64,000 nt of DNA from an uncultured Lachnospiraceae bacterium. GTDB taxonomy: Bacteria; Bacillota; Clostridia; Christensenellales; UBA1242. The stretch lies in NCBI GenBank assembly GCA_964432825.1, contig CAYSOX010000004.1, positions 26,126 through 90,125 of the forward strand, in the 5' to 3' direction. The notes under the pieces are model-generated. The model was not told where the DNA came from, ran no database searches, and saw only the letters and a program-made list of their open reading frames with translations. The position numbers and the translations under genes are program-made. How positions within the stretch are numbered: the first letter of the stretch is position 1; each line of letters begins with the position of its first letter. This document shows positions 49,751 through 62,032 of this stretch, piece after piece.

Positions 49751-51196
49751 ATGGATAGGCAAGATTTTAAAGATTTAATGACGGTTGTTGATGAACTTAA
49801 AAGGAGAAAGAAGCAGAAAATTTATAATTATAATGTGGGGGATGTGGTTCATAAGAAGCAAATAGAATTTCACAAAAGCCCCAAAAGAGTGCGGTTTGTG
49901 TTTGGCGGGAACCGAACGGGCAAAACCGAGTGTGGGGCGGTAGAATGTGTGTATATGGCGAGGGGGATTCATCCTTTCCGTGAGAATAAACCGAGAACGG
50001 ACGGCTGGGTGGTGTCACTTTCGACCCGAGTTCAAAAGGATGTTGCTCAAAAAAAGGTGTTGAGTTATCTTGACCCCAAGTGGATTGAAGGTATTGTGAT
50101 GAGTTCGGGGAGTCAATCTAGTCCTGAAAATGGAATAATTGAGCGAATTTTGGTGAAAAATGTTTCGGGAGAGATTTCTACGATTGGGTTTAAGTCGGTC
50201 GAAGAGGGGCGAGATAAATTTCAGGGGGCGAGTTTGGACTATGTTTGGTTTGACGAGGAACCGCCCGAGGATATTTATACCGAATGTGTGATGCGAACGC
50301 TTGACCGCAAGGGGGATATTTTTTGTACGATGACGCCACTATTGGGGAAAACTTTTGTTTATGATAAAATTTATTTGAATACATTACACGACCCTGAAGT
50401 GTATTATTCCTTTTTTTCGTGGGCGGATAATCCGTTTTTGAGTGATTCCGAAGTGAAGCGGTTGAGGGGAGTTCTTGCAAAAGATGAGTTGGAAGCGCGT
50501 GAGTTTGGGCGATTCGTTTTGGATTCGGGTGGATTGGTGTATCCCGAGTTTGATGAGTTTGAAAATGTGGTTGAGCCTTTTGAGGTTCCACGGGAATGGC
50601 AGGATATAATTTCTATTGACCCTGGGCTCAATAATCCGCTTTCGGCACATTGGTATGCGGTAGACCCATACACCGGAAATATTTATGTTATTGCCGAGCA
50701 TTTTGAAAAGGGGCGGTCGGTGGATTATCATTCGGAAATGATTTTGGCAATTTCGGATAGGCTTGATTGGAAAAAGAATTGTTTTGGGGGTGTTGATGCG
50801 TTGATTGATAGTGCTGCAAATCAGACAACTTTAAATAATCCAAAATCGGTTACCGAACTTTTTCGCGAGTGCAATATTTATGTAAATCCTAAAGTTAATA
50901 AGGAACTTTTTAGCGGAATAAATCGTGTGAAGCGACTTTTGAAAGATTCTACGGGCAAAAGGCGACTTTTTATCTTTAAAAATTGTGTAAATTTGATTCG
51001 CGAATTGAAAAATTATCGTTGGGGCAAGTCGGATATGCCGATAAAAGAGGATGACCACGCGCTTGATGAGTTGAGGTATTATGTGAACCGCCATATTTCT
51101 TTGCATCCAGAACTGGAACCAATGTCGGAAATTCAAAAAGACAAGGAACGGTTGGCACGGAGAGTGAACCCATTATATTCAAGATTTCGCCATTAA
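49751..51196 (+). CDS. terL: Phage terminase large subunit
   Basis: AGGAGG lies 5 nt upstream of the ATG. Walker A-like GGNRTGKTE. Walker B/catalytic LDYVWFDEEP. Nuclease-domain acidic motifs SIDPG, ALIDSA and DDHALDELRYY. The length of 481 aa is typical. Confidence 0.9.
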   Translation: MDRQDFKDLMTVVDELKRRKKQKIYNYNVGDVVHKKQIEFHKSPKRVRFVFGGNRTGKTECGAVECVYMARGIHPFRENKPRTDGWVVSLSTRVQKDVAQKKVLSYLDPKWIEGIVMSSGSQSSPENGIIERILVKNVSGEISTIGFKSVEEGRDKFQGASLDYVWFDEEPPEDIYTECVMRTLDRKGDIFCTMTPLLGKTFVYDKIYLNTLHDPEVYYSFFSWADNPFLSDSEVKRLRGVLAKDELEAREFGRFVLDSGGLVYPEFDEFENVVEPFEVPREWQDIISIDPGLNNPLSAHWYAVDPYTGNIYVIAEHFEKGRSVDYHSEMILAISDRLDWKKNCFGGVDALIDSAANQTTLNNPKSVTELFRECNIYVNPKVNKELFSGINRVKRLLKDSTGKRRLFIFKNCVNLIRELKNYRWGKSDMPIKEDDHALDELRYYVNRHISLHPELEPMSEIQKDKERLARRVNPLYSRFRH

Positions 51197-51748
51197 AATG
51201 ATAGTTTTTGCAAAAATTTTGTTGGTTTTTGCAAAATTTTGAACATTTTTAAAACACAGTGAAATTTCAAATGTTAAGCGTTATTGGTTGAGTATGGTTT
51301 TTTGGAGTGCGGGCTTAACGGAAGGGCGAAAATTGGGGAATGGCTAGAAATACTTGCAGGGAGTTATCTGTGGCGAATTTTTGTGTTGATGACTGGTGAG
51401 GTGGGCGGTGTTTATGGCGATTAATGGTTAGGGTTTTTATGGTAAGTGGCGAGTGCTGAGGGGCGGTAGACTTTGGGGTATAGTTGGCTTTTTGAAAAAA
51501 GAGGGCTGAATGCTAATAATGGAGAGATTCACTCGCGAGTTTTTAGTTGGTTTGTAAAATGTAGGCGGTTAGGGTTTAAGTGGTTATGGTTGATAAAAAA
51601 TTATAAAAACAAGAATGTTGGTTTTTGTGGAGCCTTCGTTTTTGTGGCGTTGGGAGAAAGGGCGTTTTTTTTGCGTCCAATTTTGTGATTTTAATTTTGA
51701 AATTAAAAGTTTTTGTTAGTTTTATTTAAGTTTTAAGGAGATAAATTT

Positions 51749-60217: not shown

Positions 60218-60814
60218 TGTGGGCCATGGCGGTGTTATATTCAAAATGTTAGCGTTATTCAAAAGGTTAACCCGTTTAAATTTGTAGTAAAAATAAAGTG
60301 TTAGTATTATTTAATGATGACACAATTTTAAGCGGAGAGGAAAATCTAAAGTGGGTGTCAATATCTAAAAAGTAGAATTATTAAAAATGCGGGCAAAGTT
60401 TTAAATTCTTAATAACAAAAGATGTGTTTTGTTTATATTTTATATATCCTTTTTTATAGCGAAAACGAAAATACTTAATTTAAACAAATTAATTTGTTAA
60501 TTGCTTTATTCATAAAAAGAAGGACAAAAAGTGGGGTATTAAAACTAGATTAACGCTATTTAGCCCGCTAAATTTATAATAAGAAGTCCTCTAAGGGATT
60601 TATTATAGTAAAATTTGAAAATGAAAACAAAATATCTAATCCGTGAACTTTTTAATTGCTTTATATACAAAAAATTAAAACGCGTAAAATTTTAAAGTGT
60701 TTTTTGTTGGTCAGCAATCTTTAAATGGTGAGTTATCAAAATTTAAAGATTTATCCAAAAGAGAAGAGTGATTGATTTAATCAAAAAAAATATTATAGAA
60801 ATAGGAGATGTATT

Positions 60815-62032
60815 ATGATTTCATTACAAACAGCCGACAAGGCTTTAAAAGATGTATACTTAGGAGTTGTGAGCGACCAGTTAAACACCTCGGTCAATCC
60901 ATTGCTTGCAAGAATTAAGCAAACCACTAGCGATGTGTGGGGTAAAAATATTGTAAAAATGGCACCTTATGGCATTAATGGTGGTATTGGTGCTGGAAGT
61001 GAAACGGGGGCTTTGCCAACTGCTGGCGGTAATAATTATGAAAAGTTCACGCTAGAACTTAAAAACCTTTATGGAAAAATTGACATTTCAGACAAGGCGA
61101 TTCGTGCTAGTCAAAGCAGTGCGGGGGCTTTTGTGAACTTGCTCAATGCTGAAATGGAAGGGCTTATTAAGGCGTCTAGTTTTAATATGGGTAGAATGCT
61201 ATATGGCGACGGCAAGGGGCTTTTAACAAAAATTACCGACAATGCGGTGAGCGGGGCTACTTCCACCACATTTACCGTTGCGGATGTTACAGCACTTGCT
61301 GAGGGGATGCTTGTGGACATTGTGACTGCTAGTGGTGTGGTTAAAAAGAGTGCGGTGAAGATTGTCAATGTAAATCGCGGAACCAAAACTATAACAATTT
61401 CGGCTACGGGATTTACAGCAAGCGAGTTGAAAGTTTCGGGCAGTCAAGCGACTCAATATTATTTTGCAATTCAAGGTTCGTACGGAAAGGAATTGACTGG
61501 GCTTGGTGCCATTTTTGACACTTCGGCAACATCACTTTATGGGCTAAACCGTGAGGGCAATTCTTGGATGAACCCATATACACTTGATTGCGGAACAACT
61601 TCCACCCCTGCAAGCATTTCGGATATTACAATGCAATCGGTTATTGACTACCTAGAAGAAAATTTCGGTTCGGCGGTTGATTTTATTGTTTGTTCGAGCG
61701 GTGTAAAGAGAAATTATCAAAATTACTTGAATAGTTATCGTTCAAATATTGACATTTTGGATCTTGCGGGTGGTTTTCGTGCACTTTCGTACAATGGAAT
61801 ACCGGTTGTGTCTGATAGATTCGCTCCCAAAAATACTATGTATATGCTAAACACCGACGAGTTTAAGTTGCATCAACTTTGCGATTGGAAATGGCTTGAA
61901 GGCGAAGATGGAAGGGTTATTAAGCAGAATGCGGGAACTCCAACATACTCTGCGACTTTGGTTAAGTATGCCGATTTGATTTGTGATAAGCCCTGTGGTC
62001 AAGCAAAAATTAATTATATAGCCGAGTCTTAA
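60815..62032 (+). CDS. Major capsid protein (HK97-fold type)
   Basis: AGGAG lies 7 nt upstream. The 405-aa product carries segments typical of siphophage major capsid proteins (KFTLELKNLYGKIDISDKAIRAS, LLNAEMEGLIKASSFNMGRMLYGDGKG, YNGIPVVSDRFAP). The gene follows portal and scaffold and is followed by a strong terminator. Confidence 0.85.
   Translation: MISLQTADKALKDVYLGVVSDQLNTSVNPLLARIKQTTSDVWGKNIVKMAPYGINGGIGAGSETGALPTAGGNNYEKFTLELKNLYGKIDISDKAIRASQSSAGAFVNLLNAEMEGLIKASSFNMGRMLYGDGKGLLTKITDNAVSGATSTTFTVADVTALAEGMLVDIVTASGVVKKSAVKIVNVNRGTKTITISATGFTASELKVSGSQATQYYFAIQGSYGKELTGLGAIFDTSATSLYGLNREGNSWMNPYTLDCGTTSTPASISDITMQSVIDYLEENFGSAVDFIVCSSGVKRNYQNYLNSYRSNIDILDLAGGFRALSYNGIPVVSDRFAPKNTMYMLNTDEFKLHQLCDWKWLEGEDGRVIKQNAGTPTYSATLVKYADLICDKPCGQAKINYIAES

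Follow-up and report, generated by a model that had tools for sequence, protein, structure and literature searches.

A phage-derived gene set for a short-tailed, probably GTA-like particle on the chromosome of gut Christensenellales

To our knowledge, very few gene transfer agents (GTAs) beyond the Alphaproteobacteria have an assigned gene cluster. The RcGTA type of the Alphaproteobacteria is of siphovirus origin (long tail, tape measure, head protease) and is under the control of CtrA and quorum sensing. In the Firmicutes, PBSX of Bacillus subtilis is an SOS-inducible, chromosomally fixed phage-like particle locus that packages host DNA; its tail is contractile, of the myovirus type, and it works as a killer particle in a narrow group of species. 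FpGTA of Faecalibacterium prausnitzii, published only in 2026, is the first human-gut GTA with an assigned cluster (Nat Commun 2026, PMC12946183). GTA-like packaging of 4–7 kb fragments has also been seen in Christensenellaceae MAGs, for which no gene cluster was assigned (PMC12946183). The nearest true phages to the genes described here are Jasminevirus (Arthrobacter phages Jasmine and Casserole) and the SU10-/P22-like podophages, at 24–31% identity in TerL, portal and capsid.

The window analysed here is a stretch of 64,000 nucleotides on a 111-kb contig. Inside it lie the left two-thirds of what is probably a host-owned gene set of phage origin that encodes a complete short-tailed (podovirus-like) particle and is probably GTA-like. 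Judged from genome comparison, the set is most likely ancient and chromosomally inherited in hundreds of gut Christensenellales. FpGTA appears to be its closest published analogue, compared by description and not by sequence. Both consist of chromosomal podovirus-like virion genes in gut Clostridia, are near-ubiquitous in their host group and are without replication and integration genes; by description, both comprise a TerS-like protein without an evident DNA-binding domain, TerL, portal, scaffold, capsid, short-tail proteins and a holin. The FpGTA genes form two separate operons, of 10.5 kb and 5.5 kb, at a distance of 125 kb, and include a recognised endolysin (PMC12946183). The present locus, in contrast, is a single, order-wide cluster beside RNase J; a LexA box frequently precedes its regulator, and its TerS-like gene follows terL. 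FpGTA has been demonstrated through particles, 8.5-kb DNA and proteomics (PMC12946183), whereas the present locus is known from its genes.

Vertical inheritance, purifying selection, a truncated TerS, order-level conservation and, putatively, host control are shared with the RcGTA type, but the two are unrelated in sequence and differ in tail type, head protease and regulation. PBSX is similar as a chromosomally fixed particle locus of Firmicutes, with SOS induction as a further, for the present locus putative, common feature, and differs in its contractile tail, killing activity and narrow range. The Jasminevirus and SU10-/P22-like phages have a similar order of terminase, small genes, portal, scaffold-position gene and capsid, and SU10, VP1 and Pa223 have adaptors and nozzles of matching fold; these phages differ as autonomous 45 kb genomes with polymerase, primase and lysins. 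Nothing else besides TerL, portal and capsid was similar in the Jasminevirus comparison.

Table 1. Features of the locus within the window; position 1 is the first base of the window.
Feature	Position	Strand	Evidence or remark
Promoter-like box, copy 1	43150..43190	+	TGACACAAAATCGTGCAA, 17 nt, then TAATAT; 729 nt upstream of p807
p807, regulator-like	43879..46302	+	phrog_36 (transcriptional regulator), E 0.0016
p825m, membrane protein with two SH3b-like domains	46416..48893	-	Alignment A8; tblastn synteny; transcribed away from terL
Promoter-like box, copy 2	49579..49619	+	172 nt upstream of terL
TerL	49751..51196	+	phrog_2, 8.5e-28; Terminase_6N, 1.7e-11
p822, 822 aa, low-complexity genus-specific insert	51749..54217	+	36-nt x8 repeat; N- and C-terminal pieces alone conserved
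Promoter-like box, copy 3	54317..54357	+	265 nt upstream of p586a
p586a, enlarged ortholog of a ~100-aa small-terminase-like protein	54582..56342	+	A5-alignment HMM, E 3e-13, split segments
Portal, P22/SU10 type	56867..58954	+	phrog_156, 9.8e-33; P22_portal, 8.7e-16
Scaffolding protein, 338 aa	59201..60217	+	E 3e-8 to HMM of 69 orthologous scaffold genes
Degenerate box copy, function uncertain	60318..60358	+	497 nt upstream of capsid gene; repeat family D9
Major capsid protein, HK97-type fold, Jasminevirus/SU10-like family	60815..62032	+	phrog_14242, 1.8e-57
Intrinsic terminator past capsid gene	62074..62116	+	14-pair stem-loop (34 nt), then T-run; -21.7 kcal/mol
p155, genus-specific insert outside the ancestral cluster	62277..62744	+	Weak HepT-like match only; 82% identical in G002
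p161, second genus-specific insert	63390..63875	+	Hypothetical protein

A preliminary description of this DNA had reported intact head and packaging genes with wide gaps, low-complexity ORFs and a terminator, and this picture holds. TerL, portal and capsid are identified by family matches and the scaffold by the ortholog HMM (Table 1). The ATPase and nuclease motifs of TerL are intact (Walker A GGNRTGKT, Walker B VWFDEE, TMTP and the nuclease Asp residues) and at least 98% conserved over 58 species. The P22_portal and SU10_portal scores exceed their cut-offs, the SU10_MCP match is weak and falls under its cut-off, and the portal is 39–67% identical to its orthologs in other genera. No protease gene lies between portal and capsid. 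The portal type, the protease-free scaffold, the HK97-fold capsid and the folds of adaptor and nozzle are together those of a P22/SU10-like podovirus virion.

The small-terminase-like orthologs match phrog_309 (terminase small subunit; 5.6e-7) at profile positions 195–241 of 319; the family thus aligns with TerS profiles in their C-terminal part alone and is without an HTH. In p586a, the family core is divided by an insertion of ~240 aa and preceded by an extension of ~240 aa. The protein is only 35% identical to its counterpart in genome G002 and is evolving fast. Since the TerS-like gene is both highly expanded and fast-evolving, the copy in this genome may be partly impaired.

The absence of tail, lysis and integrase genes, reported earlier, is literally true of the window, but a tail adaptor, a nozzle and a holin domain lie 1.7–15 kb beyond base 64000, and the apparent lack of tail and lysis genes is therefore an effect of the window edge. 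A normal phage genome beyond 64 kb, which had been considered in advance, is found only in part: tail and holin genes are there, lysogeny genes are absent and wide spacing is not the genome-wide norm. Searched as profiles against PDB, the nozzle, DUF7934, the adaptor, the 124-aa protein, the p825b family and the p822 C-terminus yielded no usable sequence match, and the adaptor and nozzle were assigned by fold comparison. The predicted fold of p220 (AF2 pLDDT 92.8) is that of podophage tail adaptors (KHP30, 1.5e-6; also SU10, VP1, N4 and T7 gp11), and that of virion471 (pLDDT 84) corresponds to tail nozzles (Pa223, 4e-21, TM 0.70; also VP1, SU10, T7 gp12 and P22 gp10). On these models, p220 is the tail adaptor and virion471 the tail nozzle. 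The holin domain is fused within a 586-aa protein to the right of the window. No endolysin was recognised in the locus, and p312/g360 matched no family and has the look of a membrane protein.

The 111-kb contig is host chromosome, with gyrA at its left end and RNase J at its right, and the flanks of the compact loci in relatives are likewise housekeeping genes (gyrA, SSB, deacetylase, rnj and hrcA). Pfam and PHROG scans of the ORFs of at least 114 aa on the contig, and of the flanks of the compact loci, matched no integrase, repressor, replication or lysogeny family. Neither tRNA genes nor att-type clues were found in the window, and the assembly contains no 16S rRNA gene. As in a GTA, the virion and packaging genes are chromosomal and stand without genes for replication, integration or lysogeny. 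An integrated temperate prophage was rejected, since these searches matched no integrase, att site, repressor or replication module, and since a cluster near-universal in the family occupies a fixed site. A cf-PICI was rejected as well, the locus being without integrase or replication gene, having its own adaptor and nozzle, and being vertically inherited.

Comparison with other genera across the Christensenellales defines an ancestral cluster, a tight operon of ~12 kb (11.7 kb in the smallest case, against the 4–7 kb pieces reported for Christensenellaceae MAGs). First come a small HTH regulator, in many cases preceded by a LexA box, a divergent SH3b membrane protein and TerL. These are followed by a TerS-like protein without a recognisable DNA-binding domain, a 75-aa zinc-ribbon protein, portal, scaffold and capsid, and then by a 124-aa protein, the tail adaptor, the nozzle and one or two variable large proteins, which are probably fibres. 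DUF7934, one or two holins and a membrane protein complete the cluster, and RNase J comes next. Gene order is identical in 80 loci; RNase J lies downstream in 27 of them, those with a flank long enough, and gyrA lies upstream in three loci (two of the 27 flanked by RNase J, and G015). Of 36 family genomes, representing 30 genera, 34 have one intact copy of the capsid gene, whose identity drops with taxonomic rank. An absence in G005 was discounted as a contig break within the cluster. At least 590 species genomes, and at least 6753 protein clusters, include a relative. Beyond the order their occurrence is uneven, so that some spread by horizontal transfer, or loss on repeated occasions, has taken place.

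For capsid, TerL and portal, pairwise distances rise and fall with those for RNase J (r 0.87–0.91, Mantel p 0.001). The capsid tree has 8 of 24 splits in common with the tree of the unlinked RpoB, where 0.19 would be expected with shuffled labels; the correlation with RpoB distance is moderate only (r 0.54), and the deep branches of the two trees differ. Against G002, dN/dS is 0.07 for capsid, 0.09 for TerL, 0.14 for nozzle and 0.09 for RNase J, figures that are rough because dS is saturated. Vertical inheritance and long-term purifying selection, as in GTAs, thus characterise the cluster. The host-chromosome contig, the fixed site, the ordered single copy, the rates like those of RNase J and the clades shared with RpoB therefore indicate a domesticated podovirus-like particle locus. 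Among the three readings offered at the outset, the domesticated module survives, although as a whole short-tailed particle set and not a head-only one. A satellite is not supported, given the missing integrase, the fixed chromosomal site and vertical inheritance, and neither is a phage with an unconventional layout, given the host-chromosome contig and the normal tight operon that is ancestral in other genera.

The locus has grown to 30.5 kb here and in the closest relatives of this genome. In-frame tandem repeats enlarge five genes, and at least three new genes, p822, p155 and p161, have been inserted. The two low-complexity ORFs noted earlier between terL and portal are real (822 aa and 586 aa), and their in-frame repeats consist of eight 36-nt and five 33-nt units, respectively; the latter lie in the extension in front of p586a. 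p822 is missing from the compact clusters of other genera and found no match in Pfam, PHROG or PDB. p586a compares with ~100 aa in other genera. The scaffold, ~210 aa elsewhere, has an internal insertion of ~140 aa here that includes two copies of a 90-nt repeat. No zinc-ribbon gene turned up in this genome (G000) or in G002 and G004. The housekeeping RNase J is bloated likewise, at 800 aa versus 611 aa.

The spacers have expanded as well. Spacers of 245–600 bp had been described, and the gaps from terL to p155 measure, in order, 552, 364, 524, 246, 597 and 244 bp. The intergenic median is 260 bp in the cluster versus 101 bp in the rest of the genome, with 240 bp or more in 28% of gaps; a median of 260 bp is reached only by windows on the same contig, and the locus is the most spacer-rich stretch of the genome. 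An alternative genetic code was rejected as the source of the gaps, since recoding of TGA or TAG barely raises coding density. The spacers evolve fast and are not conserved relative to G002.

The terminator described after the capsid gene proved to be a strong hairpin with a T-run (Table 1); a generic terminator scan performed at chance level (8 found versus 7.9 expected) and missed it. Promoter-like elements, also proposed earlier, are beyond chance expectation in one respect: there is an 18-nt box that is followed, after 17 nt, by a -10 element. This box has four exact copies in the cluster and 2–3 elsewhere in 1.2 Mb (6–7 genome-wide). The four boxes are conserved between G000 and G002 amid DNA that is not, an argument that expression is maintained; box copy 1, for example, is 87% conserved in G002, unlike the remainder of its spacer. 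p155 has its own sigma-70-like promoter (62182–62210). Outside the cluster, one box copy (C2:24780) lies in an ORF-free spacer and another (C8:7117) precedes a 110-aa protein that is barstar-like by eye; no second virion locus was found at these two copies. Within the cluster, at least four units, each led by a private, predicted promoter-like box copy, appear to have replaced the single operon.

Upstream of terL, the C-terminal ~135 aa of p807 (668–802) are the ortholog of a 160–175-aa HTH regulator (BLASTP 8e-7 with L092 and 4e-5 with L103) found immediately before the cluster in other genera. The preceding ~660 aa, at the N-terminus, are a lineage-specific extension with a 30-nt tandem repeat in 13 copies. 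The small orthologs gave matches to ArpU and to sigma-70 region 4, both sub-threshold. p825m is a conserved neighbour, 243–439 aa long in other genera, and SH3_3 was matched at 3.4e-7 in its L092 ortholog. A LexA box lies directly upstream of the regulator gene in ~38 of 58 loci of relatives, and upstream of terL in none of the 58. No LexA box was found in the window, although the genome has lexA.

The gene content suggests how such a set could work. The regulator would turn on the late genes upon a host signal, and heads would assemble with the scaffold and without a protease. TerL and the truncated TerS-like protein may then load the heads with DNA, without specificity for that of the element itself. 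Holins would aid lysis of the producer cell, and the particles would carry host DNA in the fashion of a GTA.

Domesticated particles could have a role other than gene transfer, as a PBSX-like killer, a programmed-lysis device or a carrier of something besides random host DNA. This is unlikely, although the same evidence of domestication fits it, holins belong to the conserved set and PBSX is a precedent in the Firmicutes (PMC12946183). The variable proteins between nozzle and DUF7934 would also suit receptor-binding parts under diversifying pressure, as in bacteriocin-like particles. On the other side, the conservation of the TerL motifs over 58 species indicates that DNA packaging itself is under selection, the short podovirus tail is without the contractile or tube apparatus behind tailocin lethality, and GTA-like packaging of host DNA has been reported in the same bacterial family (PMC12946183).

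It is improbable that the locus is decaying in this genome and yields no working particles while the family-wide element is functional. The repeats and inserts, the missing zinc-ribbon gene and LexA box, the 586-aa TerS-like protein and the non-conserved spacers of so spacer-rich a stretch would agree with decay. However, all core ORFs are intact, and within the genus purifying selection acts on capsid, TerL, nozzle and portal. The TerS-like protein and the scaffold keep their conserved segments around the insertions, the four boxes are kept amid changed DNA, and RNase J shows the same bloat. An ordinary cryptic prophage remnant, a cf-PICI-type satellite or a mis-binned phage contig is very improbable: virion and packaging genes only, 63 IMG/VR contigs with capsid relatives, and distant true-phage kin (Jasminevirus, and IMG/VR contigs of 36–64 kb with capsids 36–47% identical and a different TerL) might suggest one, but the contig carries gyrA, RNase J and other host genes and no matched integrase, the site beside host genes is the same across dozens of genera, the tree of the single copy is in agreement with that of host RpoB, the locus is under purifying selection as strong as that on a housekeeping gene, and the IMG/VR contigs are for the most part short stretches of this very chromosomal locus, including host neighbours.

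A GTA-like particle set thus remains the probable reading, and a more specific proposal is put forward tentatively. The cluster could be the gene set behind the 4–7 kb host-DNA packaging in human-gut Christensenellaceae, as an order-wide, SOS-wired, podovirus-derived GTA that was possibly domesticated independently of FpGTA. In this genus, one LexA-controlled operon would have been rewired to at least four private promoters, and a five-fold expansion of the TerS-like protein tolerated.

Christensenellales are gut bacteria that are heritable and health-associated. A selected, conserved single-copy locus in hundreds of their species is an obvious candidate for the Christensenellaceae packaging genes, and the question is now directly testable. 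The swollen locus is in addition a natural experiment in how much insertion and repeat load can be tolerated by a virion-assembly and DNA-packaging gene set that is under selection.

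The gene cluster between gyrA and the RNase J gene encodes a whole short-tailed particle. The preliminary description had reported intact genes for the large terminase (TerL), portal, a scaffold-like protein and the major capsid protein, and the ORF map, family scans and a scaffold HMM bear this out. The 338-aa ORF between portal and capsid matches an HMM of 69 orthologous scaffold genes (E 3e-8) in two segments with an insertion of about 140 aa between them, and is the scaffold. No tail, lysis or integrase genes had been seen in the window. Adaptor, nozzle and holin genes lie just past base 64000, so the apparent lack of tail and lysis functions is an effect of the window edge. 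Of the normal tail, lysis and lysogeny complement envisaged beyond 64 kb, tail and holin genes are thus there, but family profile scans gave no match to integrase, repressor or replication families among the contig ORFs scanned. The absence of a head protease suits a scaffold-dependent, P22-like assembly route.

The 471-aa protein and p220, encoded beyond the window, were modelled by AlphaFold on ortholog alignments, followed by fold comparison. The model of the 471-aa protein (pLDDT 84) matches the podophage tail nozzle of Pa223 (E 4e-21, TM 0.70) and also the nozzles of VP1, SU10, GP4, T7 (gp12) and P22 (gp10). The p220 model (pLDDT 92.8) matches the podophage tail adaptors of KHP30, SU10, VP1, Pa223, N4 and T7 (gp11). 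By modelled fold, the two proteins are a tail nozzle and a tail adaptor, respectively. Further downstream, p338b weakly matches the Pgp3 C-terminal domain (E 0.001), which we take to be a TNF-like trimeric domain that occurs in receptor-binding tips too. Jointly with the variable proteins p366 and p825b, p338b may make up the particle's fibre or receptor-binding part.

Features of the cluster and its surroundings (window coordinates; C4, coordinates of the contig), with protein lengths in this genome and in the compact form
Feature	Position	Strand	Length here (aa)	Length in compact form (aa)	Remark
12,637-aa ORF	4320-42233	-	12,637		single ORF, 7.5 kb left of terL
18-nt box	43150				upstream of p807
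Regulator (p807)			807	175
SH3b membrane protein (p825m)			825	243
18-nt box	49579				upstream of terL
Large terminase TerL	49751-51196	+			ORF map and family scans; intact
18-nt box	54317				upstream of TerS-like gene
TerS-like (p586a)			586	100
Portal	56867-58954	+	695	620	ORF map and family scans; intact
Scaffold			338	208
18-nt box, degenerate	60318				before capsid gene
Major capsid protein	60815-62032	+			ORF map and family scans; intact
p155	62277-63875 (span of p155 and p161)
18-nt box	65087 (window-equivalent)				upstream of 114-aa gene
114-aa protein	C4 91387-91731		114		downstream of window base 64000
p220	C4 91785-92447				after 114-aa gene
Virion structural protein	C4 92951-94366		471		after p220
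Three function-unknown proteins	C4		366, 338, 825		in that order after 471-aa gene
p338b	C4 96531-97547 (window-equivalent 70406-71422)
DUF7934 protein	C4		540	316	after 366/338/825-aa proteins
Protein with N-terminal holin domain	C4		586	75	after DUF7934 gene
Membrane-like protein	C4		312		after holin-domain protein, then RNase J
RNase J (housekeeping)			800	611

Two small genes lie between terL and portal at nearly every locus. The product of the first, about 100 aa with a conserved core KKA.GY...E...K.KV.TK..PPD..A.K.L, matches only the C-terminal part of terminase-small-subunit PHROGs (phrog_309 positions 195-241 of 319, E 5.6e-7), which marks it as TerS-like but lacking the usual DNA-binding domain. 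The two low-complexity ORFs noted in this interval of the window are real and contain in-frame tandem repeats. An HMM of the TerS-like family matches the 586-aa ORF (E 3e-13); a 240-aa insertion divides the match, and an extension of another 240 aa comes before it. This supposed insert is therefore a swollen ortholog of the TerS-like gene. The other, the 822-aa ORF (p822), has counterparts within the genus only and matched no family. The second small gene encodes a zinc-ribbon protein of 75 aa with four cysteines; it did not turn up in this genome, nor in the two congeners examined.

The contig is host chromosome. It belongs to a 1.2-Mb bin (33% G+C, 92% complete), is 111 kb long with the window at 26126-90125, and ends in gyrA on the left and RNase J on the right. 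Genes for a BspA-type LRR protein, an acetyltransferase, a hydrolase and proteins of 2,997 and 12,637 aa are among those in between. Relatives of the 12,637-aa ORF occur upstream of the cluster at 10 of 80 genome loci, in the congener G002 and in three IMG/VR contigs. Capsid identity at all of these loci is about 60% or higher, and no such relative was detected in genomes G015, G017 and G045, so the adjacency of this ORF to the cluster is limited to one subclade.

The relatives are placed among uncultured gut Clostridia of the order Christensenellales. A single intact capsid gene occurs in 34 of 36 same-family genomes (30 genera). In the order's other families, 10 of 24 genomes have the gene too. 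Capsid identities are 72-87% within the genus and 36-66% within the family. One of the two apparent absences in the family is an assembly break; that contig begins inside the cluster and has the genes for adaptor, nozzle, DUF7934, holin and RNase J. With each species represented by one genome, at least 590 species proved to have a relative, and the large protein collection contains at least 6753 matching clusters (E 1e-10 or lower), some of them on contigs as long as 1.2 Mb. The order and spacing of terL, portal, scaffold and capsid are constant in all 80 fetched loci. The 124-aa, adaptor, nozzle, DUF7934, holin and membrane-protein genes follow the capsid in the same order where tblastn detects them. 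RNase J lies downstream in 27 of the 80, wherever the flank extends far enough. Two of these RNase J-flanked loci have gyrA some 10 kb upstream, and in G015 it is about 5.5 kb before terL. In other genera, the cluster forms a tight operon (11.7 kb in L103) whose genes overlap or nearly abut, and its flanks consist of the housekeeping genes gyrA, SSB, a deacetylase gene, rnj and hrcA.

Two occurrences lie further afield. G045 (2.4 Mb), which belongs to a different family of the order, contains the capsid gene twice (L033-L035 at C1 ~983-995 kb, and C1:2225471). Its TerS-like segment is upstream of terL, as is canonical for phages, and lies in the terL reading frame or is fused to it; RNase J is not nearby. 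This locus may be a less-domesticated or prophage-like relative. Genus g135 (family f80, a different Clostridia order) has a capsid relative in 10 of 10 sampled genomes (E about 1e-139), so the element is fixed in at least one lineage outside Christensenellales. An eleventh f80 match, in genus g165, is much weaker (1e-65).

The evidence supports vertical descent and selection of the particle genes. Across 23 species, the pairwise divergence of capsid, TerL and portal follows that of the neighbouring host RNase J (r 0.87-0.91, Mantel p 0.001), and the capsid is better conserved than RNase J. In the comparison with RpoB, which is not linked to the cluster, distances among 27 genomes approach saturation and the correlation is only moderate (r 0.54, p 0.0001). 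The capsid and RpoB trees have 8 of 24 splits in common (expected 0.19, maximum 3 in 2000 label shuffles), including the entire five-genome clade around this genus. Between this genome and G002, dN/dS is 0.07 for capsid, 0.09 for TerL, 0.14 for nozzle and 0.09 for RNase J, rough values as dS is saturated. Conservation of the Walker A, Walker B, coupling and nuclease motifs of TerL reaches at least 98% of the 58 species compared.

In this genus, the gene set has been expanded and re-partitioned. Several genes are enlarged over the compact form by in-frame tandem repeats or low-complexity insertions, p822, p155 and p161 are inserted genes, and the cluster spacers evolve fast. Long low-complexity extensions occur in many proteins of the genome, housekeeping RNase J included. 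The wide spacing first described was recovered on the ORF map, with consecutive gaps of 552, 364, 524, 246, 597 and 244 bp. Stop-codon recoding is ruled out as their cause; the standard code fits and the gaps stay open. As to whether such spacing is the genome-wide norm, 28% of intergenic gaps are at least 240 bp, so long spacers are common in the organism, but the median is 101 bp and the contig with the cluster is the extreme. G-over-C strand asymmetry is very pronounced on all contigs of the genome (absolute skew 0.1-0.33), and in the window the skew is +0.3 to +0.55 at 42-60 kb, positive irrespective of gene direction. Directly after the capsid terminator, p155 and p161 form a genus-specific insertion with its own sigma-70-like promoter. 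p155 has a weak HepT-like RNase match (E 0.005) and is 82% identical in G002; the two genes may be a toxin-antitoxin-like pair.

Putative regulatory elements of the cluster differ between this genus and others. In other genera, a gene for a 160-175-aa HTH protein, with sub-threshold matches to the ArpU family of phage packaging and lysis regulators and to sigma-70 region 4, lies directly upstream; a C-terminal segment of 135 aa in the 807-aa ORF of the window aligns to it. A LexA-box palindrome GAAC-N4-GTTC, mostly CGAACAAATGTTCG, is found in about 38 of 58 loci at 1.25-1.8 kb upstream of terL, directly before the regulator gene, and is roughly forty times rarer elsewhere within the loci. None occurs in the window, although the genome has lexA and SOS boxes elsewhere. 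The promoter-like elements noticed in the spacers proved to include an 18-nt box, TGACACAAAATCGTGCAA, followed after 17 nt by TATAGT, TATAAT or TAATAT. Besides the four copies in the cluster, the whole genome has only 2-3 more. A perfect copy with TATAAT, at C2:24780 (+) on another contig, lies in an ORF-free stretch of ~3 kb with no evident gene downstream. The boxes are the sole parts of the spacers conserved between this genome and G002, and they are absent from other genera. The strong intrinsic terminator 3' of the capsid gene was located at 62074-62116 (fold energy -21.7 kcal/mol); a generic terminator scanner missed it, its sites overall being at chance level only. In this lineage, a single operon appears to have been broken into several units with one shared private promoter type, which accounts for the promoter-like and terminator elements first seen.

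A phage of unconventional layout and a capsid-forming satellite or cryptic element had been offered as readings alongside a domesticated head module. The nearest annotated phages, Jasminevirus phages of Arthrobacter (24-31% identity), resemble the locus in TerL, portal and capsid only. Of the 63 IMG/VR contigs with relatives, most are short fragments of this chromosomal locus, host neighbours included. In a second group, of 36-64 kb contigs, the capsids are 36-47% identical and TerL is a different one (22-29% identity); these are probably real phage cousins. Domestication is the part of these readings that held, and we regard it as very likely, but the domesticated set is that of a whole short-tailed particle and not of a head only.

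The literature search found no paper describing the Christensenellales cluster. FpGTA of Faecalibacterium is a podovirus-like GTA-like element with genes for a TerS without a DNA-binding domain, TerL, portal, scaffold and capsid, and a second operon for tail and lysis; its 40-nm particles have been demonstrated to contain about 8.5 kb of host DNA (PMC12946183, 2026). The same study reported GTA-like packaging for Christensenellaceae MAGs HGM11616 and QANA01, with peaks near 4.1/7.1 kb and 6.3 kb, and assigned no gene cluster to it. The locus described here is owned by the host, vertically inherited and under selection, and its genes are those of a short-tailed phage-like particle. Such particles would take up host DNA in the manner of a gene transfer agent, a role that we give slightly better than an even chance and that is the likeliest among their uses.
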